56,622 bases of DNA from a virus, in IMG/VR virus record IMGVR_UViG_3300031276_000001, positions 1 through 56,622 of that record, one strand, 5' to 3'. Below are positions 20,031 to 51,657 of the stretch, one piece after another. The notes under the pieces are model-generated. The model was given only the letters and a program-made list of their open reading frames with translations, searched no databases and was not told the DNA's origin. A program made the position numbers and the translations under genes. How positions within the stretch are numbered: the first letter of the stretch is position 1; each line of letters opens with the position of its first letter.

Positions 20031-20031
20031 A

Positions 20032-20811: not shown

Positions 20812-20882
20812 ATGACATATTAATATTATGGCAATATAAAAAAAATAAAAATAATAAAGATTAATTGTGGATAAGGTGAGCC

Positions 20883-21065: not shown

Positions 21066-21102
21066 GATTGTATTAAGAATATCTATACAAGGAGGCGTTA
21101 AA

Positions 21103-21300: not shown

Positions 21301-21318
21301 AAAAGAGGTTGATATTTT

Positions 21319-30224: not shown

Positions 30225-31202
30225 CTAACTTCCAGCTTGGCCTAATACAGCAAATGGATATCTAGTATTTGAATCTTTATTTACTCTATTAATAGGATTC
30301 GGAACCTGCCACGCAATTCTCATACAAGACCTCAAACCTACCATATTTTGCTGTGCTAAATTATAAATAATTTCGCCTGTGCTTGGGTCTTGAATAACTG
30401 CTTCTGTTAAGATCTTCCATGTAATATCTTTTCTAATTGCATAAATTAATTTTGTCCAATCACCAGAAATTAAAAGACTTCTATCAGGTATTACACTTCC
30501 ATTTTTAGGGAAATACATAGGTTCACCATCTAATGTATAAACAGTGCTTCCCTGCATTCCTTCTTTAACTAATGCTTTAAATATCGGTTGATTGCTAGCA
30601 TCTCTTAATCCTCTTAATCTAGCCCTCATTGTCATTGCTGCAATATGGCCGTTAACCATAAAACCATCTTCTTCAACTTTTGCAATTACACCATCTATTC
30701 CTAAAATATCGGCGTAAATGTCACCAACACCACCAAGTTGAACAAAATTTCCAGCAGCTTGACAGGCGGCAACTAAATTAGTAGGCCAAACAGCCGGCGC
30801 ATTTATACCATACATTACAGCTTGATCGAATGCTAGCCCATAAGCTTCTAATAATTTTGGTTTTGTTTCAGCCCAAATATCATAATCCGCATCATCCAAT
30901 ACCGCTTCTGGAATTGCGATAATAACGTTTAATTCCTCTGCATCCAAATATTTATTACGCCACATTATTTTGGTTGTTTCTTTCCACCCTAAATCTCCAA
31001 CATCGCCAGGACCTGGATTAGTAAAATAAGCTGTTGGTAACACTGATAAAACAGGAATTCTCCTTTGTGCCCTGCTCATATTTGCTGCTCTATAACCTAA
31101 TGCCATTATAGTCGACATTTCGGGAACGCTTTCAATTATTTCTCTTTGATATTCTTCCGGCATCAATGCTTCAACACCGACACGAGGGATATAAGTCGCC
31201 AT
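30225..31202 (-). CDS. Major capsid protein (HK97 fold)
   Basis: 325 aa after the scaffold gene. LDAEELNVIIAIPEAVLDDADYDIW and downstream segments match the Phage_capsid family pattern. Confidence 0.85.
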   Translation of the reverse strand: MATYIPRVGVEALMPEEYQREIIESVPEMSTIMALGYRAANMSRAQRRIPVLSVLPTAYFTNPGPGDVGDLGWKETTKIMWRNKYLDAEELNVIIAIPEAVLDDADYDIWAETKPKLLEAYGLAFDQAVMYGINAPAVWPTNLVAACQAAGNFVQLGGVGDIYADILGIDGVIAKVEEDGFMVNGHIAAMTMRARLRGLRDASNQPIFKALVKEGMQGSTVYTLDGEPMYFPKNGSVIPDRSLLISGDWTKLIYAIRKDITWKILTEAVIQDPSTGEIIYNLAQQNMVGLRSCMRIAWQVPNPINRVNKDSNTRYPFAVLGQAGS

Positions 31203-35763: not shown

Positions 35764-36336
35764 TCATATTAACTTTATTTCCAGTTCTGCATCATCTTTT
35801 TCAATTTCGATACCGTCTATTTTACATATTACACCATCACTATCAATTAATTCACCATCATCAGAAACATTAAGTGTTGATTTAAATTCTTTCCATTTTG
35901 GAGATTGTTTTAACTCAGTTTTTATAAATTCGTTCATTTTCTTTTCTTCAAAATATTTAATTAACTTTTCATCATCTTTTTTAACAATCTTATTTTTTTC
36001 TTTTTTAAAAATAAATTTTGCTGATGGTATCAAATATGTGGTTTGAGTCAATGTTTCTTGTAATCCACATGATATTTCACCATTTTCAAAAGCAGAATTC
36101 AAAGTAAATGTTATCTTATTTTTTATATTATCTTTTACTGATAATAATCTATTTTCAGCCTTTTTTAATTTTTCCTGATATTCTTTAATTCTTTTATTAC
36201 ATACATAAATATATCTTTCTGCCTCTTTTTCAGCGTTTTTTAATTGTTCGATCTCTTCTTCAAGGAAGCAATCCATTTCAATTTGTTTTTCAAGTCTTTT
36301 ATCTTTTATTTTTAATTCATTTTCTTTATTAGCCAT
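35764..36336 (-). CDS. Coiled-coil protein, possibly Gp157/Gam-like
   Basis: N-terminal coiled-coil plus a C-terminal globular part; sits in the recombination/replication neighbourhood. Weak recognition only. Confidence 0.3.
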   Translation of the reverse strand: MANKENELKIKDKRLEKQIEMDCFLEEEIEQLKNAEKEAERYIYVCNKRIKEYQEKLKKAENRLLSVKDNIKNKITFTLNSAFENGEISCGLQETLTQTTYLIPSAKFIFKKEKNKIVKKDDEKLIKYFEEKKMNEFIKTELKQSPKWKEFKSTLNVSDDGELIDSDGVICKIDGIEIEKDDAELEIKLI

Positions 36337-36722
36337 TATTTAAGTTCCTTTCTAATCATATAATAATATTTATATACCATTTCTTTATTATCAGAATAAA
36401 AAATAATATTTTTAAATTTAAATATATTTTTAATATTATCTTTACTTAATTGAATTTCTCTTTTATTAACAAATGCATATGAATTATATGTTTCAATATA
36501 GCAATTAGAATCATTATCAATCCATTCAATTCTATCTATATTATTAATATTATTTATATTCAAATCTTCTACATCATATTTTTCTAATATTTCAACGACT
36601 TCACAATTTTTATATATACATTCCTGATTAAGAAATATAAAAGTCAAATAAACAAATAATAATAATGAAATATTAATAATTAATAATGAATTTCCTATAA
36701 TTAATAACATTTTAGTTGACAT
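36336..36722 (-). CDS. Membrane-anchored hypothetical protein (128 aa)
   Basis: N-terminal TM segment (LLIIGNSLLIINISLLLFVYLTFIFL). Confidence 0.55.
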   Translation of the reverse strand: MSTKMLLIIGNSLLIINISLLLFVYLTFIFLNQECIYKNCEVVEILEKYDVEDLNINNINNIDRIEWIDNDSNCYIETYNSYAFVNKREIQLSKDNIKNIFKFKNIIFYSDNKEMVYKYYYMIRKELK

Positions 36723-36734
36723 CTTTTAATCCTC

Positions 36735-37409
36735 CTAATCATCTAAACAATTATATAAGACTTTTCCATTATTAATAATTAATAATGAATTATCATTATT
36801 TAAATTGTTTACTATTGTTATATATATTGTTTCATCTTCCATTATTTTTGATGTCTTTTTCAAATTACTTATTATTTCATTCCATAACTTAAGACATTCA
36901 GCATTGCCAGCCTTTGCATCCAAAACGCTATACATAAAATAATCATTTAAAGGAATAATATCAATACTATTATTTAATTTATTATATTTAATTTCAGCTA
37001 CATTTTTATAACATTCTTCAAATATAATTAATGCATTTTCTAAAGATATTTTTGTGTTAGAACTATTTTTAGTTGTTTCCTTTTCAGGTGTTTTCTTAAT
37101 TGATTCTTTTTCAATATTTTTTGTTGTTTCTGGGATTCTTGTTGTTTCTGGAATTCTTGTTGTTTCTGGAATTTTTGTTTCTATATTTTGTTGAGTTTGT
37201 TTTATTTGTTCATTAGTTTTATTATCTTCACTTGAACAAAGAGTTATAAACATAATTATTGTTATTAAACTTATAAAGAAAGAACATATAATTCTTATAG
37301 CATTATTATTTATATTTTTAAATAGATATCTATATGCTAAAATACCTATAGCTATATAAGGAACGAAAACCCATAATAAACACCATTTTATAAATTTCTT
37401 TAAATCCAT
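36735..37409 (-). CDS. Membrane protein with IPETTR repeats (224 aa)
   Basis: Two N-terminal TM segments followed by three IPETT(R/K) repeats. Confidence 0.6.
   Translation of the reverse strand: MDLKKFIKWCLLWVFVPYIAIGILAYRYLFKNINNNAIRIICSFFISLITIIMFITLCSSEDNKTNEQIKQTQQNIETKIPETTRIPETTRIPETTKNIEKESIKKTPEKETTKNSSNTKISLENALIIFEECYKNVAEIKYNKLNNSIDIIPLNDYFMYSVLDAKAGNAECLKLWNEIISNLKKTSKIMEDETIYITIVNNLNNDNSLLIINNGKVLYNCLDD
37123..37176. repeat. 3 x 18-bp tandem repeat (gttgtttctggRattYtt)
   Basis: Three consecutive near-identical 18-mers within the coding sequence. Confidence 0.85.
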
Positions 37410-37801: not shown

Positions 37802-38344
37802 TTAAAATTCAAAAATATTATAATCTATTTTTTTATAATCGTTATTGCTTATTCTTATAATTTCGTCAAATCCTTCGTTGATCTCAGGATAAATATATTT
37901 ATCATTCATTTTATTTATAGTTTCAACCATTTGTAAATCATTATTTTTTTTTGCCCTCTCAATACAAAGTTCTTTTGATGTATCTATATGAAAACAATAA
38001 ATTTTATAATTATATTTTTTAGCAAGTTTTATTATTTTCTTTCTTGCATATTCATAAACATTTGTTTCATCAACAAAAATATAATTACCATTCTGTAATA
38101 ATATTTTTAAAAAATGTTCATTAATTGACCACATAAAATTTTCACCTTCATCATACCATCTACATCCATATAATTGAAATCTTAATTGATCAGCTGAAAT
38201 TAATACAATTCCTTGATTCCTATTCATTACAATCCTTCTTAATGTACTTTTACCAGAACGTGGTAAACCAACAGTAATAAAAATGCGTTTTTCTTTTTCA
38301 GTAAAATTAATTAATTTATCTTTTTTTTCACTAGTTTCAATCAT
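37802..38344 (-). CDS. P-loop kinase (AAA_33 / zeta-toxin-like fold)
   Basis: Walker A GLPRSGKST near the N-terminus and Walker B-like YIFVDETN; 180 aa. Confidence 0.55.
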   Translation of the reverse strand: MIETSEKKDKLINFTEKEKRIFITVGLPRSGKSTLRRIVMNRNQGIVLISADQLRFQLYGCRWYDEGENFMWSINEHFLKILLQNGNYIFVDETNVYEYARKKIIKLAKKYNYKIYCFHIDTSKELCIERAKKNNDLQMVETINKMNDKYIYPEINEGFDEIIRISNNDYKKIDYNIFEF

Positions 38345-38700: not shown

Positions 38701-39843
38701 TCATAATAAATTACTTCTAATATCTTTTAATGTTTCAGCTGCGATTTTTCCAGATTGTCCACGAAATTTTTCAGGAAATATATTTTCTATAAAATCTTTT
38801 TCCTCATCTTTCATTCCATCAATTAAAGCTTTTTCAATTAAAATAAGCATTTCCTTAAAATCTTTTGCATGATATCCAATTTTTTTTGAATATATTTGAT
38901 ATTCTAAATTTTGAGTATCATTTTCAAAATGTTTCATTGTATCATGTTTGCATATCCAATCTGGAAAAACAACAGGTGTTCCTATTGCCCACGCTTCATA
39001 TAAAGTTGACCCAGCATCAGCAATTACAACATCAGCATCAATTAATTCCTGAAAAGTTGGAGTTTGTTTCTTTTTTGCATTCATTTTAGTTGTTGGATGC
39101 ATTCCATTTATAATTTCATACTCATCAGGAAATTGATTTAAAAATTTTTCAAAAAATGGATAACTTGACCGACCTTTATGCTTATTTCCGTAACCATGTG
39201 TTGGTAACCATGCAATAATCGGTTTTTCACTTCGTCTTTTACCATATTTACCTTGAAAAATTGGGTCAAGTTTTGTGTATCCAACTTGGAATATTTCACC
39301 TTTATATCCTGTATTTCTCATTCTACATTCCCATGTAGGTCCAGGACAAAAAGCATAATTAAAATATTTTATATGTTTTCCTATCCAATAATTTTTATCA
39401 CCTATTCCATGTGACATAAAAATATCATTTGGACCAATTGAACATTTACCCTGTTGATTTATTCGCATTGATGAAAAAAACCTGATATTTAATCCTTTAT
39501 AATCTATACCAGGAACCGGCCTTGAAAAATATCCAGCCTCATCTTTTGGCAATTTTTCAATTATTGGATTTGCTAGTGCTTCAATTGCATAACTATAAGC
39601 ATTTCCAGCATGTTGATTAACTTCGTCATATATGAAATTATAGTTTAATCCTGTTTTTAATCCATGTCTTTTTTTATATGATTCATTATTATATTCGTCA
39701 ATCCTTAAATCTTTATTTGATCTTACTAATTTAAAATCATAATCAGAACTACCAGTATAAATTGTTTGCTCTTCAAATGGTTTAAATGTCCACCCTTCTA
39801 TTTTTATAACATAATGTGCTTTATTAAAAATTACAGCTCTCAT
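38701..39843 (-). CDS. Putative polyol-phosphate transferase (TagF/TarL, CDP-glycerol glycerophosphotransferase-like)
   Basis: IIAWLPTHGYG, GMHPTT and ELIDADVVIADAGSTLYEAWAIGTPVVF parallel conserved blocks of the Glyphos_transf family. Last gene of the operon. Confidence 0.45.
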   Translation of the reverse strand: MRAVIFNKAHYVIKIEGWTFKPFEEQTIYTGSSDYDFKLVRSNKDLRIDEYNNESYKKRHGLKTGLNYNFIYDEVNQHAGNAYSYAIEALANPIIEKLPKDEAGYFSRPVPGIDYKGLNIRFFSSMRINQQGKCSIGPNDIFMSHGIGDKNYWIGKHIKYFNYAFCPGPTWECRMRNTGYKGEIFQVGYTKLDPIFQGKYGKRRSEKPIIAWLPTHGYGNKHKGRSSYPFFEKFLNQFPDEYEIINGMHPTTKMNAKKKQTPTFQELIDADVVIADAGSTLYEAWAIGTPVVFPDWICKHDTMKHFENDTQNLEYQIYSKKIGYHAKDFKEMLILIEKALIDGMKDEEKDFIENIFPEKFRGQSGKIAAETLKDIRSNLL

Positions 39844-39844
39844 A

Positions 39845-40519
39845 TTACCTCCTAGTAAATATAACTTGATTATCTAAAAATTTCCCATCTTCAATAATAT
39901 CTAAAATAAATTTTGCTATTTCTACAGGCTTCAACATGTTATTGAAATCATCATCGGGTGCGATATCTTTTCTTAATTGGCTATCAAAAGCCCCCGGTGC
40001 TATTGTATAAACTTTTATATTATATGGTTTTAATTCTTCAGATAAAGACAAACTAAAACTAACTAAAGCCGCTTTTGTTGCTGCATAAATTGCACGACCT
40101 GGTCTATTTCTAAAAGCGGCCGTGCTTGCTATATTTAGAATTTTACCTTTAAAATAAAGCTCTTTGCATAATTTAGAATATGCTTTACATAAATTTATAG
40201 CTCCAAATACATTGACCTTAAATTGCTCCAAAACATTATTAATATTAATATTAAAAATTCCTTCTGGAATACATATTCCAGCATTATTAATTAATGCAAA
40301 TGGAATAACTTTATATTTAATATAATAATCATGGAATTCATCTATAAATTTATCTATTTCACTATAATTTGTAATATCTAATTCATTGTATTTCGTTACT
40401 CCAAAATAAAAAAAACCTCTTTTACATGCTTCTTTTGCTATTGCAGCACCTAACCCTCGTGAAGCTCCTGAAATTATTATTGAATTCCCAACAATCGGAT
40501 TAGTCATCATTAACACCAC
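39845..40519 (-). CDS. Short-chain dehydrogenase/reductase
   Basis: Cofactor motif ISGASRGLGAAIA; catalytic S...YAATKAAL. Confidence 0.85.
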   Translation of the reverse strand: MVLMMTNPIVGNSIIISGASRGLGAAIAKEACKRGFFYFGVTKYNELDITNYSEIDKFIDEFHDYYIKYKVIPFALINNAGICIPEGIFNININNVLEQFKVNVFGAINLCKAYSKLCKELYFKGKILNIASTAAFRNRPGRAIYAATKAALVSFSLSLSEELKPYNIKVYTIAPGAFDSQLRKDIAPDDDFNNMLKPVEIAKFILDIIEDGKFLDNQVIFTRR

Positions 40520-41216
40520 ACTTCGTTTTATATATTATTTCAGCTATTTTTAAATCAAGTGGTGTTGTTACTTTTATATTTTCTTCTTCTCCTATTATAG
40601 TATTAATTTCAATACCATTATCTATATTGTTTAATAAAGCTACATCATCAGTATAATTTAAATAATTATAATCATTATTTTCGTTCGCTATTTTTTGTGC
40701 CATTTTATGGCATTCTTTTAGAATATCCGTTCTAAATCTTTGTGGCATTTGAACCTCAAAAATATTATTTCTATTAATTGAATCTGCTATAATATATTTT
40801 TCTGTATCAATTATTTTTATAGGTGTAGATTTTAAACCAATAACAGGTGTCAACGCTTGACATAGTTGATATTTTATAATTATATCTAATAATTTAGATG
40901 ATATAAAAGGTCTTACACCCTCCGCAATCAAAACATAAGATGTTTGGACTTCTTGAAGTCCATAGAATACTGATTGTTGTCGAGTTTTTCCAGCACTACA
41001 AAATTTACATAATGAAATATTATAATTAGAACACATTTTTTTTATTTTTTCTTTTTCGTTCGTCGGAATTATGATATCTCTAATAAATACATTTTTATTT
41101 AATATTTCCAACCCATGAATTAACAAAGGTTTTCCACCCAATATGTAATATTGTTTAGGATATCCAAGTTTTGCCCTTATTCCCTCACCTCCACAAAGAT
41201 AAATAACATCAATCAT
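40500..41216 (-). CDS. IspD/TarI-family cytidylyltransferase (CDP-alditol synthesis)
   Basis: N-terminal LCGGEGIRAKLGYPKQY...GGKPLL is the signature of the family; 238 aa. Confidence 0.75.
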   Translation of the reverse strand: MIDVIYLCGGEGIRAKLGYPKQYYILGGKPLLIHGLEILNKNVFIRDIIIPTNEKEKIKKMCSNYNISLCKFCSAGKTRQQSVFYGLQEVQTSYVLIAEGVRPFISSKLLDIIIKYQLCQALTPVIGLKSTPIKIIDTEKYIIADSINRNNIFEVQMPQRFRTDILKECHKMAQKIANENNDYNYLNYTDDVALLNNIDNGIEINTIIGEEENIKVTTPLDLKIAEIIYKTKCGVNDD

Positions 41217-41610
41217 TTTTTATATCCTCCATTTTACAATTAAAATATTTAATATTCTTTTTAAACATTGCTGTCATTTGTATTGATTCTACAATTGAAT
41301 TTATTCCAAATAAATATAATTTTTCAAATTCTATAAGAATTGAATCATAATTATTATTTTTTATATATTTCCATAATTCATTATTATGACAATTAGAAAT
41401 AGTTTCAAAACACTTATTTACCATCTTTATTTTTTTTCTGATTTTATCAATCTCATTACCATATTCTTCTATTTCTTCTTTTACAATTGCCCACCCTTCA
41501 TGGATTGTATTAAATTTTTCATCATGTTTTTTATTACTTCTATCAATTTCAAAATCTATTAATTTTTCGATAACTTGTGTTAACTTATCAGGTTTATAAT
41601 CCATTTTCAA
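41209..41610 (-). CDS. Hypothetical protein within the glycan operon (133 aa)
   Basis: Track ORF that overlaps both neighbours. Confidence 0.55.
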   Translation of the reverse strand: MKMDYKPDKLTQVIEKLIDFEIDRSNKKHDEKFNTIHEGWAIVKEEIEEYGNEIDKIRKKIKMVNKCFETISNCHNNELWKYIKNNNYDSILIEFEKLYLFGINSIVESIQMTAMFKKNIKYFNCKMEDIKND

Positions 41611-42275
41611 ATCTCCAATCTAAATTTATTTTTTCTTATACATTGTTTTTTATATGTATTAGCATAGTTTTGCAAAACTATTGTATTTTTATTTAATTCA
41701 CTTTGATTGCATGATATAATTCTTTGTCCTTCTTTCCTATTACCATCAATTTTGTAAATTGTATATTTATTAGCTACAATACGCCGCCAATATCTAGCAA
41801 CGAAATAAACTGAGATATATTTATTTTCTTTCTTAATTCGGTTAAAATAAACTTTAAATTTTCTCAAAGTTTCGTCAATTCCAGGATGATTTTTAACAGC
41901 TCCAAAAAATCCTATATCTGCTTGACCTCCTTTAGTATTGGAACAAAACATTGAATGTTTTTCAAAATATTTAATACTTTCAATTGGTTTTAAACATTTT
42001 GAATCAATATCTACATAAACGCCACCATAAAGATTTATTAATTCTAATCTCAATAAATCTGCTTTTGTTGCATATATTGGTATCATTTTAATCGCAGCTT
42101 TATTTATTATTCTCTTCCAAATATATTTAAGTTTTACATCGTCCCATAATTTTATATCCCATTCAGGATTATAATATTTATAACTATCTATATTATAAAT
42201 AAAATTATTTTTGTATGGTCCTAACCATATAAAATGTAATTTTTTTGGTATCATTTTTTTATCATTCATATCCAT
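41607..42275 (-). CDS. GT32-type glycosyltransferase (DXD sugar-binding region)
   Basis: IPKKLHFIWLG and KADLLRLELINLYGGVYVDIDS. Confidence 0.6.
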   Translation of the reverse strand: MDMNDKKMIPKKLHFIWLGPYKNNFIYNIDSYKYYNPEWDIKLWDDVKLKYIWKRIINKAAIKMIPIYATKADLLRLELINLYGGVYVDIDSKCLKPIESIKYFEKHSMFCSNTKGGQADIGFFGAVKNHPGIDETLRKFKVYFNRIKKENKYISVYFVARYWRRIVANKYTIYKIDGNRKEGQRIISCNQSELNKNTIVLQNYANTYKKQCIRKNKFRLEI

Positions 42276-42960
42276 TTAAAATTTTTAGTTTAATTAATAG
42301 TTCCTTACTTTCACAATCCCATTTTTCTATATTTTTTTTTGTATATCTTGTGCAGTGACCATTTTTATCTTTATTATAAATTGTAAAAATTTCATTAGTT
42401 CCAATAAATAAAGCACCCGCATTTGCGAAGGTTATCCATAAAAAAGCATTACAGAATTCAGAATTTAAATATTTGGAATGATTCCATAATGATTTTCTAA
42501 ATATTGAATGACTTGATATCCAATATTTCAAACCTAAAAGTTTTTTATTATTTACTTTTTTAAATTTTAAATATTTATTTCTTTTCCCAAATTCAATAAT
42601 TTTCATACCTCCACAAATTACATCAAAATTATTATATTTCTCAAAATATTTTGTTGCATTACTTGTAATCTCATCATCTATATCAAGATACATTATAAAT
42701 TTAGAATAGCATATTTCAACTGCTTTGTTTCTTACGTTTCCCATATTAGTATGCTTATTAATGAAATGAAATTTATAAGATATTTTTGCATCCATTAAAA
42801 TTTTTTCAGCATTAACAAAATTTTTTATATTATATCTAGTTCCAGATTGAACAATCGTAACCATTATAGGTTTTATATTTAGTTTTGCAATTGATTTTGC
42901 CCATCTTATTAAATATCTATCATACCAATTATAACAACTTGTGCAAATCCCAAAACTCAT
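42262..42960 (-). CDS. Family 2-like glycosyltransferase
   Basis: N-terminal ICTSCYN..., then a YLDIDDE DXD motif; 232 aa. Confidence 0.5.
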   Translation of the reverse strand: MSFGICTSCYNWYDRYLIRWAKSIAKLNIKPIMVTIVQSGTRYNIKNFVNAEKILMDAKISYKFHFINKHTNMGNVRNKAVEICYSKFIMYLDIDDEITSNATKYFEKYNNFDVICGGMKIIEFGKRNKYLKFKKVNNKKLLGLKYWISSHSIFRKSLWNHSKYLNSEFCNAFLWITFANAGALFIGTNEIFTIYNKDKNGHCTRYTKKNIEKWDCESKELLIKLKILNGYE

Positions 42961-42972
42961 ATAATTATCCCC

Positions 42973-43890
42973 TTATTTTAAACTTGACTTAAGAAAATTG
43001 TGTGCTCTTCTTCTTTCTTTTGTAATGAATTTTTCAAAATCATCATATTTATAATTTAGTAATGTTTCAAATCTACTTTTTACTTTTGGATATGCATTAC
43101 CTATCAAATAATAATCTTTTTTAAATATTTTACTCAAAATTAATCCATGATAAGACGTTGTTATTATTTTTTCGGAATTCATGTAACATTTTAATAATTT
43201 TTCAACTTGAAATCCTTTATTTAAAATATGTATAATTCCTTGTTTTTTAGCTGCCTTTTTTAATATATTAATATGTTTTTGGTTCTTATTATTCAGAAAA
43301 TATCCAAATATATATTTATTGGGATATTTAAAATTTGATGTGCTTGCTAATTTATACCATACATTTGGGTTAACAATTAATGTTGGGTCAAGTAATAATT
43401 GTGCTTTTTTACCTGATATATTTTTTATTATTTCTATTGCCTTAATTTCCCGCACTGATATTCTCTTATATTTATTTAAATGTTCTGCATATTTAGTTTC
43501 AAATAAAGTTGATAAACTATCAACACCAAAACTAGCAGAAAAGGCAACAAGTTTTTTATTATCAATTCGTTTTAATCTTTTAATTAAATTTAATTGTCTT
43601 GTTGCTCTTATCATTGGATTAAATACTTGATCACTACCAATCAAAAAATAATCATATTCGTTCTCAACTTCTTCAAGATTTGGAATAAATCTTGTTTTTA
43701 TATTTTCGTCAGTAAACTTTTTTAATATTTCTTCTTTTGCATTTTTTGGTTTAATCTTATTAAAATATAATGTTTCTGCATTATATCCAAGCTCTTTTAA
43801 TATTTCCTGAACTGCATAATTTTGTAGCCTATTACCATAATTTGAATATACAAATAATGTTATTATCCCAATTTTCATAAGCTTATCCAC
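42973..43890 (-). CDS. Polysaccharide pyruvyl transferase-like protein
   Basis: KIGIITLFVYSNYGNRLQNYAVQ and ITTSYHGLILS match the conserved N- and C-terminal blocks of PS_pyruv_trans. Confidence 0.6.
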   Translation of the reverse strand: MDKLMKIGIITLFVYSNYGNRLQNYAVQEILKELGYNAETLYFNKIKPKNAKEEILKKFTDENIKTRFIPNLEEVENEYDYFLIGSDQVFNPMIRATRQLNLIKRLKRIDNKKLVAFSASFGVDSLSTLFETKYAEHLNKYKRISVREIKAIEIIKNISGKKAQLLLDPTLIVNPNVWYKLASTSNFKYPNKYIFGYFLNNKNQKHINILKKAAKKQGIIHILNKGFQVEKLLKCYMNSEKIITTSYHGLILSKIFKKDYYLIGNAYPKVKSRFETLLNYKYDDFEKFITKERRRAHNFLKSSLK

Positions 43891-44606
43891 CTTTCATATT
43901 TGATCATATCTTTTATTTTTTTTCTTCCTGGAATATTTATATGTCTTCCTTTATCTATAGTTCCACAGGCAATTATAGCAACTGGTAATACATTCGATGG
44001 TATCATAAATATTTCTCTAATCTTAGCAATATCTTTAATTTTTATGTGCACCCAACACATTCCAATATTTAAATTATGACCAGCAATTAATAAATTTTGA
44101 ATTGCTGCACCAGCATCCATATAGATAAAATAATTTTTATTTTTATCTTTCCCATATATTTCAATTTCAGAGCATGCAATTATACAATTTGGAGATTTTT
44201 TTATAAATCCTTGTTTTTTTAAATTACTAATTCTAGAAATTTTTAATTTATCTTCAGTTAAAATAAAACTTATTGGCTGCCTATTACAACTAGACGGTGC
44301 ATATCTAGCAGCATTAACAATTTTTTCAAAATCATCTTTTTGTATTTTCCCTTTATATTGCCTTATACTTCTTCTTTCAAAAATCGGTTTTAATTCATCA
44401 TTTTGTAATATTTCTGTGTATATATCCACACAATTTTCAAATAATACATTTTTTGCCCAATTAATTTCATCATCAGATAAATATTTTCTTATATTGTTAA
44501 ATGATGATTTTGCCGCATTTAACCGTTTTTGATTTATTTTACCTTCTTCCATTTCTTTTTCCACAATATGAACATTAGTTTTAAATATTGAAAGTTTATT
44601 TTTCAT
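43875..44606 (-). CDS. Nitroreductase-family flavoprotein
   Basis: RRSIRQYKG...ARYAPSSCNRQP signature; first gene of the operon; GGGGTG RBS. Confidence 0.7.
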   Translation of the reverse strand: MKNKLSIFKTNVHIVEKEMEEGKINQKRLNAAKSSFNNIRKYLSDDEINWAKNVLFENCVDIYTEILQNDELKPIFERRSIRQYKGKIQKDDFEKIVNAARYAPSSCNRQPISFILTEDKLKISRISNLKKQGFIKKSPNCIIACSEIEIYGKDKNKNYFIYMDAGAAIQNLLIAGHNLNIGMCWVHIKIKDIAKIREIFMIPSNVLPVAIIACGTIDKGRHINIPGRKKIKDMIKYERWISL

Positions 44607-44674
44607 TATCTTTCACCCCTTATTAAATTATATAATTTAATTGAGTTTTTTTCAATATATATTGAAACGGCAAT

Positions 44675-44709
44675 AAAAAGATGCTTCGCTCATTGGAAAA
44701 CATCTTTTT
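44675..44709 (-). promoter_or_regulatory. Leader hairpin 3 (terminator/attenuator-like)
   Basis: aaaaagatg (44675-44683) pairs with catcttttt (44701-44709); 17-nt loop; about 70 nt upstream of the operon start codon. Confidence 0.4.
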
Positions 44710-44803
44710 ATTAGTGATTAGATTTTTATTATTAATTTAATTACTACTTAATTCATTTATATTAAATTAAAGTACAATATGTAGAGAAACATTTATTAAT
44801 AAT

Positions 44804-44860
44804 ATTATATAAAAAAAAATGTTTTATATCAACTTCCCCCATTCGATATAAAACATTTTT
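44804..44860 (-). terminator. Leader hairpin 2: intrinsic terminator with an embedded promoter (P2)
   Basis: 16-bp stem 44815-44830 / 44845-44860, minus-strand loop GAAUGGGGGAAGUU, then a U9 run. On the same strand, TTGATA (44832-44827), 17 nt, TATAAT (44809-44804). Confidence 0.5.
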
Positions 44861-44880
44861 CTTTATAACTCTGTCAACTC

Positions 44881-44925
44881 ATTATTCGGTTTGAAATAAT
44901 GGGGATTCATTTCAAACCGAATAAT
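44881..44925 (-). promoter_or_regulatory. Leader hairpin 1 (17-bp stem, C-rich loop)
   Basis: attattcggtttgaaat (44881-44897) pairs with atttcaaaccgaataat (44909-44925). The minus-strand loop GAAUCCCCAUU is complementary over 7 nt to the loop of hairpin 2. Confidence 0.5.
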
Positions 44926-44965
44926 ATTTCATCACAAAATATTATAAAAACTTTTTACAATAAAT

Positions 44966-44994
44966 ATAATAATTGATTTATTCTTAATTGTCAA
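44966..44994 (-). promoter_or_regulatory. Sigma70-like promoter P1
   Basis: On the minus strand: TTGACA (44994-44989), 17 nt, TATTAT (44971-44966). Confidence 0.45.
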
Positions 44995-46860: not shown

Positions 46861-47357
46861 CTAACCTATTGAATATAGTCCAGTCTTATTTCTTTGATCG
46901 TTTTTTTCTATTGTCTTTTCAAGTTTTTCACGCCATCTAATAATGCTATATTTTAATTGTTTCTTAGTTTTACCATTTTTTACTTTTTTTAACGTATTAT
47001 TTAAAAGGTCTTCACTATATTGGTTTTTGACATGGATGTAACCTACCTTTTTTCCCACTAAGACCATTAAACATTAAAATATTATTTGGATAAGTGAAAT
47101 CATTTGGTATCAATCTTTTTGTTAATTTTATTTGATTATTGTATATATCGGTATTTGTAACTTTTTTCTTTTCTGGTCTAATATTTTTTTCTTCCTTTTT
47201 AATAATTATAGGATAATATCTTCCTGTCTTTTTATAAAATATACTTATTATTTCGTTTTTACGCATAGGTTGTATATTGCAATTCAAATGATTACTAGCT
47301 TTATCCTTTATCCAAATCCAATCATATTTAAACATATTAATATTTGATATTCTTAAT
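46861..47357 (-). pseudogene. Middle and 3' remnant of a disrupted N6/N4 DNA methyltransferase
   Basis: FKYDWIWIKDK...P...EIISIFYKK and ...RLHPCQKPI (an HPxQKP-type block), then a stop. The frame changes into 46861..47067 and no GSGT AdoMet motif follows. Confidence 0.5.
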
Positions 47358-48416
47358 CTACCTCCATTCAATTCCAATATAATCAAGTACTTTCCCCCAT
47401 CCAAAAACCTCACCTTTTTCATTTTTGTAACAAGACTTCATCCAATATTCCCATTCTTTTTGATTGGTTTCGTACAATCTATCAAATCTATGCGGCCTTT
47501 TCTTTTCAAGCTGAATCCCAAATCCACACATCGAACAACCAGTTCTTTGTGCTTTTGTTGTGAATAAATTACCATTTACATCTGTTTCAATAGTTCCATA
47601 AATATCTGGAATAGGAACATCTAGCTCTAATGCTAACTTTAAAATGTCCTGTCTATTGAATATTGCAAATGGAGCTGACCTGATTACTGATTTACCAAAA
47701 TAGTTACACCCGTTAATCATCAGGCTTTTACTCCTTCTACCTCCTTCACTTGCCATCATTCCCAGAAATGGGACTGAATTATTTTCTTTTGCCCAATCAT
47801 TACAGGGCTTTTCTTTTAAGTAATAACAACATTTGGATGATACTTTAAAGTCAGGTTTATTATAGTTTTCATTTTCATATCCGCCAAATTTTTCTAACCA
47901 AACCTTAGATAATTTCATTCTTGTATTTTTTCTATTACCTCCATATTTTCCGGTTTCGCCTGTCATAATTGCATGTCTAATTGTTGAGTTTTTTTCACTT
48001 GGGTTTTGTAAGTATTCTATTTTCTGGGCAATTTCTTTACTTAGTACTGGAAATCCAAATTCTTGTATTATATTTTGTTTATTCCAGTGTGTTCCATCTT
48101 TTTTCTTTGCAGATTTAAGTCTTTCAATTCCTAATTCTTTATGTATTTTTTGTATACTCATATCCTCAAGATAACTTACTGATATTCCTGGAACATTAAT
48201 TCCTATATTTTTCAAAAATAAATATAAGGTTATACTATCCAATCCTCCAATACTAACATGACAATTTAATCCTCTTTTTTGACATTCGTTGTAAAATTCC
48301 CATGCTCTTGCATATGCATAATTTTTCTTAAATTCGTAACTTCCTTTTTGCTTTACCATAAAATCTGCTATCTTTTTATCTGCTCCAATACTTTTCATTC
48401 TCTCAATTACATTCAT
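47358..48416 (-). CDS. PAPS-reductase-family (PP-loop ATPase; IbrA/DndC-like) protein
   Basis: PP-loop-like HVSIGGLDS near residue 55 and a C-terminal Cys cluster (RTGCSMCGFG); 352 aa. Confidence 0.65.
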   Translation of the reverse strand: MNVIERMKSIGADKKIADFMVKQKGSYEFKKNYAYARAWEFYNECQKRGLNCHVSIGGLDSITLYLFLKNIGINVPGISVSYLEDMSIQKIHKELGIERLKSAKKKDGTHWNKQNIIQEFGFPVLSKEIAQKIEYLQNPSEKNSTIRHAIMTGETGKYGGNRKNTRMKLSKVWLEKFGGYENENYNKPDFKVSSKCCYYLKEKPCNDWAKENNSVPFLGMMASEGGRRSKSLMINGCNYFGKSVIRSAPFAIFNRQDILKLALELDVPIPDIYGTIETDVNGNLFTTKAQRTGCSMCGFGIQLEKKRPHRFDRLYETNQKEWEYWMKSCYKNEKGEVFGWGKVLDYIGIEWR

Positions 48417-48550
48417 ACTCTACCACCTTCCTGAATTGCTTTGTCTATGTTAATAAGTCTGTTATATAACAACCTACAATGTTCTATTGTTTCATCTATT
48501 ATTATGCTTTCGGCTTTTTTGGGATATATCCTATATTTGTAAGCTTTCAT
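48413..48550 (-). mobile_element. Stub resembling the N-terminus of an IS200/IS605-family TnpB (OrfB) (45 aa)
   Basis: MKAYKYRIYPKKAESIIIDETIEHCRLLYNRLI matches the characteristic TnpB N-terminal pattern (KxYKYRIYP...Q...RxxYN). It ends in an ATGA overlap with the PAPS-reductase gene and has no RuvC domain. Confidence 0.45.
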
Positions 48551-48604
48551 ATTTTCACCACCTTTCAATATAATAAGTGTACCACTATTACATATACTTG
48601 TCAA

Positions 48605-48633
48605 CACTATAATTGTATGTTAATATTATAGTG
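48605..48633. promoter_or_regulatory. 9-bp inverted repeat (operator candidate) in the divergent promoter region
   Basis: cactataat (48605-48613) / attatagtg (48625-48633), overlapping a TTGTCA-17-TAATAT promoter-like element for the RHH gene. Confidence 0.4.
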
Positions 48634-48646
48634 AGGTGATAATAAT

Positions 48647-48799
48647 ATGATTAAAGAAGATAATACAAGAATTCAAGTTACAATTCCTAAAGATTTAAAA
48701 AAACAATTAGAAAAAAAAGCAAAAGAAAATGACCGTTCAGTAAGTAATTATATTGTTAAATTAATTAGAGATGATGTTATGCAGAATACCCCCACCTAA
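48647..48799 (+). CDS. Ribbon-helix-helix protein (50 aa)
   Basis: Hand-translated: MIKEDNTRIQVTIPKDLKKQLEKKAKENDRSVSNYIVKLIRDDVMQNTPT. GAGGTG RBS. Confidence 0.55.
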   Translation: MIKEDNTRIQVTIPKDLKKQLEKKAKENDRSVSNYIVKLIRDDVMQNTPT

Positions 48800-48818
48800 G
48801 AGGATGGGGGTATTCTGC
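48781..48818. terminator. 14-bp GC-containing hairpin between convergent genes
   Basis: gcagaataccccca (48781-48794) pairs with tgggggtattctgc (48805-48818). Confidence 0.6.
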
Positions 48819-48819
48819 A

Positions 48820-49017
48820 TTAAAAAGATAAATTAATATCAATCTCCTTATCCCATTTTGCATAAGTTAAAGAATAAGGAAGATCACACAATATTAAATC
48901 AATATATTTATTTTTTATATTATTCATTTCGATCAAACAATCACCATTTATTAATTTATTCATATTAAAATAATCACTTTCTATATCTGGTAAAATTTTT
49001 TTATAATTATCGCTCAT
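48820..49017 (-). pseudogene. 5' fragment of the disrupted DNA methyltransferase
   Basis: MSDNYKK...LINGDCLIEMNNIKNKYIDLILCDLPYSLTYAKWDKEIDINLSF, then a stop. It has a typical MTase N-terminus with a D(P/L)PY motif and stops exactly at the hairpin. Confidence 0.55.
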
Positions 49018-49516
49018 CACCATATTGAAGCCAATGTTTTCTTTTATTTCTTGCAAAAAATTCAAAATATTGTGGATATGATACTTTTTCAATAATATCA
49101 TATGTTTCATCTGGTTTTCGACTATGCTCTCTTCTATTTGCAAAAAACACAGTTGGACATTGTTGTCTTTTCCCATCAACTATTTTGTATGGTAATTTCC
49201 CTTTTACTCCAAATAATAATAATTCATGTTGACCTCTAAAATATTGACCTAAGCCAAATCTATCTTTTACCCAAACAATATTTGTTATATATTTATAACC
49301 ATAAATTTTTAAAGCTTCCAAACCATTGATTAAAAATTTATTTGTTACCCACAGATAGCAATGACTATTTTTAATATCTGGTAGAAATTTTTTATAATTA
49401 TATATTTCATTAATAGACATTAAGTTATAATGTCTATCTGCTCCTCTTTTTATTTTACCACCACCCTTTTCAGGCCATGGAGGGTCTAAATATAGAGTTC
49501 CAACATCATAAGTCAT
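49007..49516 (-). CDS. MT-A70-family N6-adenine DNA methyltransferase
   Basis: LYLDPPWPE catalytic motif, plus YLWVTN and HSRKPDE blocks; 169 aa. Confidence 0.8.
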   Translation of the reverse strand: MTYDVGTLYLDPPWPEKGGGKIKRGADRHYNLMSINEIYNYKKFLPDIKNSHCYLWVTNKFLINGLEALKIYGYKYITNIVWVKDRFGLGQYFRGQHELLLFGVKGKLPYKIVDGKRQQCPTVFFANRREHSRKPDETYDIIEKVSYPQYFEFFARNKRKHWLQYGDER

Positions 49517-50483: not shown

Positions 50484-50936
50484 TTACTTATTATCACAAT
50501 ATTTATAATATAAATTTTTTAATATTCCATATGCTTCAAAATTTATTTCATCTACTTTATTAGTTCCAATTTTATGATTTAAATTACAAAATCTTTCTGA
50601 TAATAATATTTTCATTATTTTAAAGTCATCTATTGGAATATTAATATATTCAATATCCTTAACTTTTAAAATATCATTGTTAATATTTATTTTATGCAAT
50701 AATTCTCTTAATAATGAACTTTCAATGTTTTTTCTTTCTATTTTAATTTTTAATATTTCTAATTCATCTTTTAATATTTTTGTTTCTTCTTTATCTAATT
50801 GCATTATTTTTAATTTAGTTTTTATTTCATAATGTTTTTCAGATAAATTATTTAATTCTTCAAATGCTTTCTCTTGTCTATTTTTATATAAATTGTAAAT
50901 ATTTTCATCAATATAATATTTATTCATTTTTATCAT
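50484..50936 (-). CDS. Hypothetical coiled-coil protein (150 aa)
   Basis: Track ORF. Confidence 0.55.
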   Translation of the reverse strand: MIKMNKYYIDENIYNLYKNRQEKAFEELNNLSEKHYEIKTKLKIMQLDKEETKILKDELEILKIKIERKNIESSLLRELLHKININNDILKVKDIEYINIPIDDFKIMKILLSERFCNLNHKIGTNKVDEINFEAYGILKNLYYKYCDNK

Positions 50937-51657
50937 CCTCCAAAAATTTTACAGTATCTTGATTTACAAATATATCATTTTTTAATTCATCAAGCATACT
51001 GCACACCTGTTCTGGATGCAATTTACTTCCTAGATATGATTTATTTTTAAAAATAAAAGGTGATGTAGTTAGAACACTAATAGCTGCTAATAATAATTTC
51101 CCCTCTTTTGAGTCACAGCTTAAAGAATCAAATATTTTTGTGTCAATTAAAAGTTTTTCATTTGAAATATTTTCATATTTATTTTTAATTGTTTCTTTTT
51201 TATACCACGGTACAAAACTTTCTATCTTATCAATTAATGAATCAATCTCATTTCCATTAAAACAAAGTGCTCTATCATCAATTGTCAAATAGCATGGTGG
51301 TTTAAATGCAGCTATTTCATGAAACATAATTTTATATTTCATGCAATAGTCAATTATGCAACAAATTCCATCACCTGATTGGCATCTTGATGAGAATATA
51401 ACTATTCTATATCCTATTTTTATAAGCTTATCAATTAATTCTTTTATACCTTTTACAGGTTCATCATTCGCAACCGCTGCACATTTCCATCCTGATACAT
51501 AAGAATGAATAACACCATCAAAATCAAAACATAATGTTTTGTTTTTTTTCTTTTTTACAAATTTACAGCAATATGACTGATCATTTCTTATTATTGTTCC
51601 GTCAGTTCTGCATATCCCATTATTATAATTATTGCAATTAATACATATCTCTTTCAT
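50920..51657 (-). CDS. Zinc-finger plus HAD-like phosphatase-fold protein
   Basis: N-terminal CINC...C...CC, then a CFDFDGVIHSY DxDG motif and IVIFSS; the C-terminus carries the shared module. Confidence 0.45.
   Translation of the reverse strand: MKEICINCNNYNNGICRTDGTIIRNDQSYCCKFVKKKKNKTLCFDFDGVIHSYVSGWKCAAVANDEPVKGIKELIDKLIKIGYRIVIFSSRCQSGDGICCIIDYCMKYKIMFHEIAAFKPPCYLTIDDRALCFNGNEIDSLIDKIESFVPWYKKETIKNKYENISNEKLLIDTKIFDSLSCDSKEGKLLLAAISVLTTSPFIFKNKSYLGSKLHPEQVCSMLDELKNDIFVNQDTVKFLEDDKNE

Follow-up and report, generated by a model that had tools for sequence, protein, structure and literature searches.

Organization of the locus

The analyzed window, a 56,622-nt stretch of DNA, is a complete tailed-phage genome. 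A 127-bp exact repeat at both ends closes it into a circular assembly of ∼56,495 bp, and JGI lists the same 56.6-kb contig. The phage origin stated in an earlier note on this DNA was confirmed by the presence of portal, TerL, TerS, MuF, scaffold, major capsid, tape measure, primase, helicase, RecT and Amidase_3 endolysin genes.

Eight minus-strand ORFs (44606 to 38701), which contain all peptide motifs quoted in that note, are abutting or overlapping, with successive junctions of -16, +12, -14, -4, -8, -20 and +1 nt from ORF1 to ORF8. They occupy 10.4% of the circular genome, and their G+C content (0.23-0.28) agrees with that of the remaining genome. Profile searches placed six of the eight proteins above Pfam cut-offs (Nitroreductase, PS_pyruv_trans, GT2, GT32/Gly_transf_sug, IspD and adh_short), the GT2 match being borderline; ORF8 was assigned by structure and profile comparison, so that the families proposed previously held for seven proteins.

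The upstream intergenic region (44607..44994, minus strand) is probably the start of the transcription unit. It contains three hairpins (44923-44883; 44857-44811, followed by a T-run; 44708-44675) and a TTGAAA-17-TATAAT site at 44655-44627, followed by a ribosome-binding site, AAGGGGTG, ahead of ORF1; this assignment is suggestive, as promoter-like matches are no commoner than in shuffled sequences (75 vs 79). The P-loop kinase gene reported at 37802-38344 is real (Pfam AAA_33, 9e-18). Among the compared relatives it occurs in the window phage only, and it lies outside the glycan system.

The conserved core genes

ORF6 (40500..41216, minus strand, 238 aa) is a cytidylyltransferase of the IspD/TarI superfamily (Pfam IspD, 8e-39). 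Its PDB matches include IspD (5e-25) and ribitol-5-phosphate cytidylyltransferases (2e-14 and 2.5e-11), and it scores below the curated cut-offs for both functions (81 vs 166 bits for ribitol-5-phosphate cytidylyltransferase, 144 vs 181 bits for IspD). Orthologs in three related loci (L001, L003 and L004) share 41-45% identity. ORF7 (39845..40519, minus strand, 224 aa) is a short classical SDR with GASRGLG and S...YAATK motifs (Pfam adh_short, 1e-31) and orthologs of 46-55% identity; its relatives comprise ∼80 proteins of the lineage type and, beyond them, generic SDRs alone. From these family memberships, ORF6 presumably catalyzes step 1 or 2 of CDP-alditol synthesis, and ORF7 is presumed to be a keto-sugar-phosphate or CDP-ketose reductase. 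No Bcs1-type fusions were found among the top matches of ORF7. The earlier proposal of CDP-ribitol-type synthesis stands in part: a unit of IspD-like, SDR and TagF-like genes recurs in ∼36 phage loci and in Anaerovorax, and the family scores justify a predicted CDP-alditol donor, while ribitol itself goes beyond them.

ORF8 (38701..39843, minus strand, 380 aa) has no Pfam match; its homolog in Anaerovorax clears the Glyphos_transf cut-off. The AlphaFold2 model of ORF8 (pLDDT 90) was compared using Foldseek, and the nearest structures were TagF (2e-9) and TarL (2e-8), followed by TagF-like capsule polymerases. The ORF8 profile A2 matches TarL (1.3e-6) and Cps3D (1.1e-5) with alignment of the aPT, HP and D..S..yE motifs, and H145, P214-T215, H249-P250, D276, S279 and E283 are invariant. 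ORF8 is thus classified, from its fold, profile matches and motifs, as a divergent TagF/TarL-like protein with predicted polyol-phosphate transferase activity. Its N-terminal domain of ∼70 aa is phage-specific, being absent from cellular homologs, and structural comparison of this domain gave no informative neighbor. More distant homologs, both cellular ones and those of a second phage group, adjoin other nucleotidyltransferases.

The variable cassette

The five remaining ORFs encode decoration-type enzymes and one protein of unknown family. ORF1 (43875..44606, minus strand, 243 aa) is a nitroreductase-fold flavoenzyme (Pfam Nitroreductase, 1e-21) partnered with ORF2; in two relatives (L012 and L030) an FrhB-like Fe-S flavoprotein takes its position beside the pyruvyl transferase. 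ORF2 (42973..43890, minus strand, 305 aa; 301 aa in the JGI record) is a polysaccharide pyruvyl transferase (PS_pyruv_trans, 2e-29) with a weak match to the CsaB family. ORF3 (42262..42960, minus strand, 232 aa) is a GT2-like glycosyltransferase (GT-A, DxD) that matches PHROG 9549 (glycosyltransferase, 1e-24) and, at the borderline, Glycos_transf_2 (3e-5, 24.4 bits against a cut-off of 23.3). ORF4 (41607..42275, minus strand, 222 aa) is a GT32-type DXD glycosyltransferase (Gly_transf_sug, 8e-11) with weak Pfam matches to Caps_synth and TcdA_TcdB. The protein clusters of ORF2 (c27), ORF3 (c32) and ORF4 (c22) are present in 10, 8 and 14 loci, respectively. ORF5 (41209..41610, minus strand, 133 aa) matched no family in Pfam or NCBIfam and resembles PHROG 25385 of unknown function (1e-6); its cluster consists of the window protein and its own JGI record, and it is given no part in the chemistry proposed below. 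The cassettes of relatives instead contain nonulosonic-acid pathways with GT29- or KpsC/S-like transferases.

Conservation and genomic position of the triad

Across ∼130 related loci, only the IspD-SDR-ORF8 triad is conserved. Among 38 distinct loci with sufficient upstream sequence, IspD accompanies ORF8 in 36 and the SDR in 35-36; the same neighbors occur in Anaerovorax (L019). Judged from this comparison, the genes outside the triad are either swappable cassette members or restricted to the window phage. The eight genes, previously read as one operon, thus resolve into a core of three and five swappable or window-only genes.

The triad clade is a single uncultured phage lineage with genomes of 55-61 kb. 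ORF8 is present in all 50 clade loci having enough upstream sequence, which identifies it as a lineage hallmark in the sampled contigs. The triad is always flanked by the MuF minor-head gene on one side and the scaffold and capsid genes on the other, in several members with only 26-330 nt between the triad or cassette and the scaffold gene, whereas cultured phages with the same capsid family have an unbroken portal-MuF-scaffold-capsid order. In relatives with capsid protein identities of 65-82%, ORF8 retains 53-67% identity. The triad thus behaves as a core gene set of the clade embedded in its head-gene block, and this lineage-wide retention argues for a core phage feature rather than the unusual feature suggested before or a one-off device for repainting the host.

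In the window, genes with plainly non-structural roles (Gam, Toprim, MT-A70 and other DNA methyltransferases, Rha regulators) share the MuF-scaffold interval. Location by itself is therefore no proof that the operon is expressed late or together with the structural genes, and a promoter-like site and hairpins upstream of the operon seem to belong to it alone. Elsewhere, ORF8-like cassettes lie between TerL and portal in the second, unrelated phage group and directly after the tail genes in phage P1312.

Proposed pathway

We tentatively propose that the locus is a phage module for a polyol-phosphate glycan, composed of the three-gene core and a swappable decoration cassette, with the virion as acceptor. 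The chemistry taken alone (transfer from a CDP-alditol donor through a phosphodiester, giving an anionic glycan) is highly probable on the assigned enzyme families, the ORF8 model and profile, and the conserved neighborhood. From CTP, NAD(P)H and a host ketose phosphate, in the simplest case ribulose-5-phosphate, ORF6 and ORF7 would make a CDP-alditol, for instance CDP-ribitol. ORF8 would then move the alditol-phosphate from this donor onto a hydroxyl group to form a phosphodiester. Sugars would be added by ORF3 and ORF4, in an order and with products that we can only presume, and ORF2 would add pyruvate from PEP; ORF1 would act with ORF2, possibly forming a lactyl ether by reduction of an enolpyruvyl group. 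The predicted product is a strongly anionic, teichoic acid-like glycan made by soluble cytoplasmic enzymes.

Candidate acceptors

The phage's own virion may be the acceptor, a reading that we favor with reservation and that fits the data at least as well as rebuilding of the host surface. The most probable virion site would be the C-terminal serine of the major capsid protein (30225..31202, minus strand; PHROG 10, major head protein), or a sugar on that serine. All 54 complete capsid proteins of the clade end in serine after a variable linker of 5-7 aa, whereas most of 74 outgroup capsid proteins do not, except for a handful of short-tailed ones. In two cultured relatives, extra C-terminal domains are fused exactly where the clade proteins end, which implies that the site is exposed; the clade serine is probably on the surface. 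Since the clade is monophyletic, the link between terminal serine and cassette represents one evolutionary event and not a statistical association. In the second phage group, which also carries an ORF8-like gene, the capsid proteins end in T or A and have no invariant serine. Virion glycosylation has a precedent in mycobacteriophage Che8, where the phage's own glycosyltransferases carry out O-glycosylation of the capsid (Freeman et al. 2023, as cited in PMC13445384); the present cassette would differ in its phosphodiester, teichoic acid-type chemistry, as predicted from its genes. If the virion is indeed modified, the variable cassette would give related phages differing capsid coats. Features counted toward this acceptor were the lack of integrase and membrane protein genes in the respective searches, the capsid serine and the phage-specific domain of ORF8. 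To our knowledge, characterized TagF-family enzymes use glycolipid or polymer acceptors, and cellular ORF8 homologs occur in wall-polysaccharide-type loci; both observations point away from the virion.

Somewhat more doubtful, yet still a serious possibility, is remodeling of the host envelope. Soluble enzymes working on the cytoplasmic side of the host membrane would modify lipid-linked intermediates of wall teichoic acid or secondary wall polysaccharide, for example the conserved linkage unit in the manner of a TagB/TarB-type primase, and host exporters and ligases would display a phage-specified, pyruvylated polyol-phosphate polymer that hides the receptors of infected cells and of debris or keeps competitor phages out. 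The TagF/TarL-like nature of ORF8 and its weak best NCBIfam match, the primase TarB, fit this proposal, as does a cellular ORF8 homolog in a wall-type locus of Lederbergia (with RmlA/B/D-type enzymes, GT2 and GT1 glycosyltransferases, a GDPD phosphodiesterase and Fe-ADH). Pyruvyl transferases of the ORF2 Pfam family modify wall polysaccharides, and ORF2 itself weakly resembles CsaB. Each of the 720 relatives of the capsid protein in the phage database has a Gram-positive host, the closest being Clostridia phages. Cassette swaps among close relatives resemble matching to different host polymers, and ORF8 could be conserved because its acceptor is, the linkage unit being one example. In the P1312 study, the ORF8 homolog of that phage was likewise tied to host teichoic acid (PMC4569894).

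Against envelope remodeling, the eight ORFs were found to include no membrane protein, initiating phosphoglycosyl transferase, flippase, polymerase, ABC exporter or ligase. The operon is therefore not self-contained for envelope-polymer assembly, contrary to what had been supposed, and would depend fully on the host. New material in the Gram-positive wall reaches the surface only upon wall turnover, a slow process on the time scale of a lytic cycle. The documented phage-borne modifiers of wall teichoic acid or O-antigen known to us (TarP, Gtr, Oac) are prophage genes, whereas neither an integrase nor a repressor module was found in the window genome. Retention in every clade member and placement in the head module are also atypical of an accessory conversion gene. 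The MAG labels of related contigs contradict one another.

It is unlikely that the glycan is built on another target (a tail or receptor-binding protein; a host protein such as flagellin, pilin or S-layer; a small molecule) or that the enzymes serve host takeover by draining CDP-alditol or PEP pools. GT32/TcdA-like folds include protein glycosyltransferases (the TcdA_TcdB match of ORF4 is weak), TagF-like CD0244 participates in the flagellin glycan of Clostridioides difficile, and the nonulosonic-acid cassettes of relatives resemble flagellin and pilin glycosylation islands. However, nothing in the data singles out one of these targets, and strict lineage-wide retention favors a target common to all members.

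DNA hypermodification, in which alditol and sugars would be phosphodiester-linked to a hydroxylated base against restriction, is very improbable. It is modeled on Bacillus phage SP-15, whose DNA carries phosphoglucuronate phosphodiester-linked to 5-dihydroxypentyluracil and whose 10-gene sugar cluster, with a proposed role in DNA modification, includes a TagF-like CDP-glycerol glycerophosphotransferase homolog, glycosyltransferases and nucleotide-sugar enzymes (PMC5977210). The cassette interval is shared with anti-restriction-type genes (MT-A70 and other DNA methyltransferases, Gam), and in one relative (L001) a C5 DNA methylase gene separates IspD from the SDR. However, the hydroxyl acceptor is absent from canonical DNA, and the window ORFs yielded no dUMP/dCMP hydroxymethylase, TET/JBP-type dioxygenase, DNA polymerase or gene of nucleotide metabolism. 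The several DNA methyltransferases imply ordinary, methylatable bases, and assembly of the contig from ordinary metagenome reads is a further, weak point against heavy modification.

Finally, a chimeric join of host polysaccharide genes into a phage contig, suggested by nothing beyond the cellular flavor of the genes, can be dismissed given the terminal overlap and circularity, the JGI record, the uniform G+C content and the same position of the triad in dozens of phage contigs assembled independently from other samples.

Gene content of the operon and completeness of the phage genome

The eight minus-strand ORFs that the earlier note had described at 44606 to 38701 were confirmed, and every motif quoted for them was found. 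Junctions between these ORFs range from -20 to +12 nt. The 389-nt intergenic region upstream of the operon contains three hairpins, one of them followed by a T-run; between the hairpins and the operon lie a TTGAAA-17-TATAAT site and then a strong ribosome-binding site. In a promoter and terminator scan of the window (25% G+C), counts stayed within chance, and promoter-like matches did not exceed their frequency in shuffled sequence.

Six of the eight proteins score above the Pfam curated cut-offs (Nitroreductase, PS_pyruv_trans, Glycos_transf_2, Gly_transf_sug, IspD and adh_short); ORF5 and ORF8 have no Pfam assignment. ORF2 matches the polysaccharide pyruvyl transferase profile PF04230 with 104 bits (cut-off 25.3) over profile positions 1-271 of 280, and its score against the CsaB equivalog is 24.6, below the cut-off of 213. 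ORF4 matches GT32/Gly_transf_sug with 42.9 bits (cut-off 23) and possesses the DXD motif VYVDIDS. The match of ORF3 to the GT2 (GT-A) profile is borderline (24.4 bits, cut-off 23.3) and is supported by PHROG 9549 at 1e-24; a PHROGs match likewise backs the assignment of ORF7 as a short-chain dehydrogenase/reductase (SDR). No function could be assigned to ORF5 (133 aa) by Pfam, NCBIfam or PHROG comparison, and this ORF is unique to the window phage among the compared loci.

Hallmark phage genes are distributed across the window, including portal, TerL, TerS, MuF, scaffold, major capsid and tape measure, as well as primase, helicase, RecT and an Amidase_3 endolysin. The window ends carry an exact 127-bp direct repeat (1-127 and 56496-56622), the signature of circular (k=127) assembly, and the window is thus a complete phage genome of ~56,495 bp. 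An identical contig is on record (JGI Ga0307442_1000013), and the G+C content of the operon equals that of the remaining genome. Mis-joined host DNA, which had been raised as a possible source of the operon, is excluded. No integrase was detected in the window, either by PHROG and Pfam scans of the larger ORFs or by tblastn with the recombinase of a relative. Rha-type regulators are encoded, and no tRNAs were found. A blastn comparison of the operon DNA with cultured phages (50,697 phage records) gave no match.

A conserved triad and a swappable cassette in the head module

We retrieved ~160 loci, clustered their ORFs, and assigned to the clade those relatives with at least 62% capsid identity to the window. 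The viral relatives were reached by alignment-based queries; back-translated patterns from the single ORF6 sequence found none. The gene order is the same in every clade locus: MuF, a variable sugar cassette, IspD, SDR, ORF8, zero or more accessory genes (Rha, Gam, Toprim), scaffold and major capsid. The IspD cluster is present in 36, and the SDR cluster in 35 (36 with a tblastn match), of the 38 distinct loci that cover 2.5 kb or more upstream of a full-length ORF8 homolog. ORF8 proteins are 67%, 58% and 53% identical where the capsid proteins are 82%, 73% and 65% identical. The gap between ORF8 and scaffold varies from 26 nt to 7.7 kb in the clade. In cultured relatives with the same capsid family (Acutalibacter, Faecalibacterium, C. 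difficile and Arthrobacter phages), the portal-MuF-scaffold-capsid order is uninterrupted; the glycan module is an insertion in the head module of the clade.

The genes corresponding to ORF1-ORF5 of the window are variable among relatives. Parts of the window-type set (nitroreductase or FrhB-like flavoprotein, pyruvyl transferase, GT2-like and GT32 enzymes) recur in ~10 loci. Most relatives carry instead a dehydratase, a DegT aminotransferase, a GNAT protein, NeuB (either full or as a short NeuB-like protein below the Pfam cut-off) and a CMP-sugar synthetase, to which the same cassettes add a GT29-like or KpsC/KpsS-like transferase, plus pyruvyl and methyl transferases. This gene content is that of a nonulosonic-acid pathway. 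The minimal versions, in loci L055 and L058, consist of a GT2-like gene and the triad with little else.

The operon had been regarded as a single eight-gene unit and as an unusual possession of one phage. Neither description survives the comparison, as the real unit is a conserved three-gene CDP-alditol/TagF-like core with a swappable decoration cassette, and the IspD-SDR-ORF8 triad is conserved across the clade in its head-module position. Triad and cassette together are a hallmark of this clade of uncultured phages. The nearby P-loop kinase gene (37802-38344), also pointed out in the earlier note, is real (AAA_33, PNK- or PSTK-like) but does not belong to the glycan module; since it occurs in the window phage only and in no relative, we rejected it as a member of the system.

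Phage glycan genes are usually classed as accessory and assigned to host-surface conversion. In the present clade, which is uncultured, widespread and composed of siphovirus-like phages of 55-61 kb, the genes for a CDP-alditol synthase and a divergent TagF-like transferase have the character of core genes. Both are integrated into the head block, and the attached cassette is exchanged among relatives much like O-antigen loci.

Two further features of these loci were observed. Beside the pyruvyl transferase lies a nitroreductase-fold flavoenzyme in the window (43875-44606) and a 4Fe-4S/FrhB-like flavoprotein (c135) in loci L012 and L030; the repeated occurrence of an oxidoreductase next to a pyruvyl transferase points to a reaction carried out jointly, such as the reduction of an enolpyruvyl to a lactyl group. 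In some relatives, a tyrosine recombinase (Phage_integrase, 1e-27) or a C5 DNA methylase is found within or beside the triad, with insertion sites between SDR and ORF8 in L029, upstream of MuF in L055, and between IspD and SDR in L001. The triad region is a hotspot for gene insertion, and some members of the clade may be temperate.

ORF8, a putative divergent TagF-like transferase

A search of 5.8 billion proteins identified 229 relatives of ORF8 (38701..39843); the best 120 all lack Pfam domains, and many are encoded on contigs of 55-60 kb. An AlphaFold (AF2) model of ORF8 built from 47 homologs has a pLDDT of 90. The top Foldseek matches of this model in the PDB are TagF (1.9e-9) and TarL with CDP-ribitol (1.7e-8), and TagF-like capsule polymerases (Cps multienzymes) match at 1e-6. 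Other GT-B enzymes score lower, from a glucosyltransferase at 7e-8 to UDP-GlcNAc 2-epimerases at ~5e-6, and a viral structure library returned generic GT-B glycosyltransferases only. The predicted two-Rossmann (GT-B-like) fold is common to ORF8 and TagF/TarL.

At the sequence level, ORF8 alone has no match in Pfam, including PF04464 (Glyphos_transf), and its match to the NCBIfam teichoic-acid primase TarB is weak (23 bits, cut-off 500). The homolog from Anaerovorax, 37% identical to ORF8, exceeds the PF04464 cut-off (23.9 against 22.1). A phage-only ORF8 profile found nothing in the PDB even at E = 1; a sequence-level match required a profile (A2) to which shorter cellular homologs had been added, and this profile matched TarL at 1.3e-6 and Cps3D at 1.1e-5. 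The C-terminal ORF8 motifs aPT, HP and D..I.D..S..yE align with both proteins, and residue by residue with TarL. Across the aligned sequences, H145 of ORF8 is invariant and is placed in SHGIGDK (HG...K context). This segment, which lies outside the alignments with TagF-type proteins, resembles the TagF motif WHGxPxK, and H145 is a candidate counterpart of the catalytic histidines H444 of TagF and H300 of TarL.

ORF8 is much shorter than TagF or TarL and, in contrast to both, has no membrane-targeting region (no hydrophobic segment) and is encoded in a phage head-gene block. Like TagF-type enzymes, it has a cytidylyltransferase as its genetic partner: IspD-like or other nucleotidyltransferase genes adjoin it and its homologs in phages and in cells. 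The phage ORF8 proteins possess ~70 additional aa as an N-terminal domain that is missing from the cellular homologs and from phage P1312; no significant fold neighbor was found for this domain, the best being YqbF at E = 2. The ORF8 family is small and separate, with 338 representatives among 1.84 billion sequences, and canonical TagF proteins were not reached. Judging by model and motifs, ORF8 is a putative divergent TagF-like enzyme. It defines a compact, hitherto unannotated TagF-like subfamily of ~290 aa in cells and ~380 aa in the clade phages, which makes an attractive minimal model for polyol-phosphate transfer.

The predicted CDP-alditol donor

Known CDP-alditol synthases include Haemophilus Bcs1/Acs1 (a fused cytidylyltransferase and SDR), TarI/TarJ, pneumococcal AbpA/AbpB, and the Campylobacter CDP-glucitol enzymes. 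As in these systems, ORF6 and ORF7 pair a cytidylyltransferase of the IspD superfamily (Pfam IspD, 8e-39) with an NAD(P)H reductase (adh_short, 1e-31), the latter being an SDR, as it also is in Bcs1 and AbpB. The motifs GxGxR...KQY in ORF6 and GASRGLG and YAATK in ORF7 can be read in the sequence. The two genes overlap by 20 nt and encode separate polypeptides, whereas Bcs1/Acs1 is one polypeptide with both domains. ORF7 is a short, generic, lineage-specific SDR, and Bcs1 orthology is not supported for it, as no fused relatives of the Bcs1 type are among its top 120 matches listed.

The proposed synthesis of CDP-ribitol is thus borne out in the presence of a cytidylyltransferase/SDR pair but not in the choice of ribitol. 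ORF6 scores below the curated cut-offs of both the NCBIfam ribitol-5-phosphate cytidylyltransferase (81 bits, cut-off 166) and the IspD (MEP cytidylyltransferase) equivalog (143.7, cut-off 181.3), and among PDB entries IspD (5e-25) matches it better than TarI-type enzymes do (2e-14). The robust link between the nucleotidyltransferase and ORF8 makes a CDP-activated polyol a well-supported predicted donor for ORF8, and the alditol could be ribitol, arabinitol, glucitol or another.

The eight operon proteins contain no transmembrane-like segments and match no family of initiating phosphoglycosyl transferases, flippases or exporters, polymerases, or ligases. The operon thus lacks genes for an initiating transferase, flippase, polymerase and exporter, and the description of the operon as a self-contained envelope-polymer pathway had to be abandoned.

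ORF8 homologs outside the clade

Shorter ORF8 homologs outside the clade are 32-40% identical to ORF8. In Anaerovorax, the homolog adjoins IspD and SDR genes, and this triad is surrounded by unrelated metabolic genes that are uninformative on the acceptor. The Lederbergia lenta locus includes RmlA/B/D-type enzymes, GT2 and GT1 glycosyltransferases, a GDPD phosphodiesterase, an Fe-ADH and a nucleotidyltransferase. In L067-L077 (IMG/VR), which form a second phage group unrelated to the clade, the gene order is TerL, GT, LicC-like nucleotidyltransferase, ORF8-like gene, methyltransferase, portal. The sole cultured phage in the database with an ORF8 homolog is Thermobifida phage P1312, in which ORF27 (30% identity over 240 aa) is located just after the tail genes and beside an O-methyltransferase. 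ORF27 differs from ORF8 in lacking the N-terminal domain, and no IspD-SDR partners are annotated nearby. The authors of the P1312 study speculated that ORF27 interferes with teichoic-acid synthesis (PMC4569894).

Candidate acceptors of the glycan

Our tentative preference for the acceptor is the phage's own virion. This assignment agrees with the clade-wide retention of the core, with its location among morphogenesis genes in three different phage groups and with the solubility of the enzymes. The major capsid protein (30225-31202; C-terminus at ~30228-30245) and all 54 complete clade orthologs end in Ser, their C-termini consisting of a conserved RYPF(A/S)V motif, a variable linker of 5-7 aa and the invariant Ser. 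By contrast, 74 more distant capsid relatives, in which the cassette is absent within the sequence covered, mostly end otherwise (A, P, V, E, I or L) or are extended at that point by a further C-terminal domain of ~85-96 aa. In two cultured relatives, additional domains are fused exactly there, which argues that the C-terminus is exposed, as it probably also is in the clade capsids. The link between terminal Ser and cassette represents one evolutionary event, the clade, and the pattern is not repeated in the capsid proteins of the second ORF8-bearing phage group.

Phage-encoded enzymes are already known to O-glycosylate a capsid in the case of Che8 (Freeman et al. 2023, as cited in PMC13445384). 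Like the Che8-type mycobacteriophages, the window phage possesses a cluster of several glycosyltransferases encoding soluble cytoplasmic enzymes, and a capsid C-terminus, probably exposed, with a conserved hydroxyl residue. Unlike the plain glycosylation of Che8, the chemistry expected here would involve phosphodiesters and polyols with pyruvate or nonulosonic acids; the cassette, moreover, lies within the head module, and its core is conserved throughout the clade.

In the mechanism that we propose for the virion, the CDP-alditol made by the phage would serve ORF8 as donor of alditol-phosphate, the acceptor being the capsid protein at its invariant C-terminal Ser or at a first sugar carried by that residue, and the swappable cassette would extend the chain with pyruvylated hexoses in the window phage or with nonulosonic acids in relatives. 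A candidate acceptor peptide for ORF8 ends ...RYPFAVLGQAGS. That clade capsids are covalently coated with a teichoic-acid-like glycan in just this way, from the terminal Ser or its first sugar through cassette extension, is a rather improbable proposal as a whole. If true, virus particles would for the first time be seen to carry a polyol-phosphate (phosphodiester) glycan, and direct attachment to Ser would be a new protein modification by a TagF-family enzyme. To our knowledge, mycobacteriophages are the only experimentally shown case of phage virion glycosylation; if the virion is the target, the phenomenon would reach beyond them and gain phosphodiester, pyruvate and nonulosonic-acid chemistry, with bearing on particle stability, adhesion and recognition.

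Transfer to a host wall polymer, in line with the host-surface rebuilding suggested in the earlier note, is conceivable, though somewhat doubtful. It fits the enzymology and the cellular homologs of ORF8, and the capsid family is known only from phages of Gram-positive hosts; against it stand the missing integrase, a total reliance on host export and the core-gene behavior of the triad. Capsid phylogeny is the sole hint of a Gram-positive host, and the MAG labels of related contigs conflict (Clostridiales, Ignavibacteria, Spirochaetes, Bacteroidales, archaea and Arcobacter). Prophage genes for serotype conversion and wall-teichoic-acid modification, such as GtrABC, Oac and S. aureus TarP, form systems of one to three genes in temperate phages, often with membrane components. 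The window phage has in common with them phage-borne enzymes of the envelope-glycan type, but it differs in having eight genes, no integrase found, no membrane proteins and a conserved lineage core. A lysogenic-conversion module would be expected on a temperate phage with an integrase and a repressor, and of these no integrase was found in the scans of the window. If the host wall is the target, a lytic-type lineage would hijack teichoic-acid assembly as a conserved strategy. Our literature searches, which covered phage CDP-ribitol, phage teichoic-acid genes, capsids glycosylated with pseudaminic acid, and pyruvyl transferases combined with nitroreductases, turned up no account of this lineage.

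Attachment of the glycan to a target other than virion, host wall polymer or DNA is unlikely. DNA is a most improbable acceptor, since no base-hydroxylating enzyme (hmdUMP/hmdCMP synthase, TET/JBP) or DNA polymerase was detected in the window, whereas the precedent for it, Bacillus phage SP-15, is a 220-kb-class myovirus with an hmdUMP synthase and its own DNA polymerase, whose DHPU cluster includes a TagF-like gene, glycosyltransferases and nucleotide-sugar enzymes and whose product has a non-backbone phosphodiester (PMC5977210).

Other genes of the window

A DPPY-type DNA methyltransferase in region 46861-49179 looks split into pieces at 48820-49179, 47015-47422 and perhaps 46861-47067. The inserted block between the pieces contains a PAPS-reductase-like gene (47358-48416), a 64-aa HTH_OrfB_IS605 fragment (48413-48607) and a plus-strand RHH gene (48647-48799). 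The protein encoded at 50920-51657 combines an N-terminal Cys-rich (zinc-finger-like) region with a HAD-type DxDGV motif and matches PHROG 1238, 'phosphoheptose isomerase', at 2e-17; locus L001 of a relative has a homolog of its N-terminal part, and this protein may be connected with sugar-phosphate metabolism.

The only sizeable plus-strand genes of the genome are located at 20005-22071. They encode a 268-aa protein (20005-20811) with a weak, below-threshold Pfam transmembrane-region match near its C-terminus, and the Amidase_3 endolysin (21319-22071), which is plain, with no recognized wall-binding domain. The pair may be a lysis cassette, inverted relative to all other genes. Finally, a 224-aa protein encoded at 36735-37409 is hydrophobic in an N-terminal segment and contains a tandem peptide repeat (ETTRIPETTRIPETT), and the N-terminus of the adjoining 128-aa ORF (36336-36722) is likewise strongly hydrophobic.
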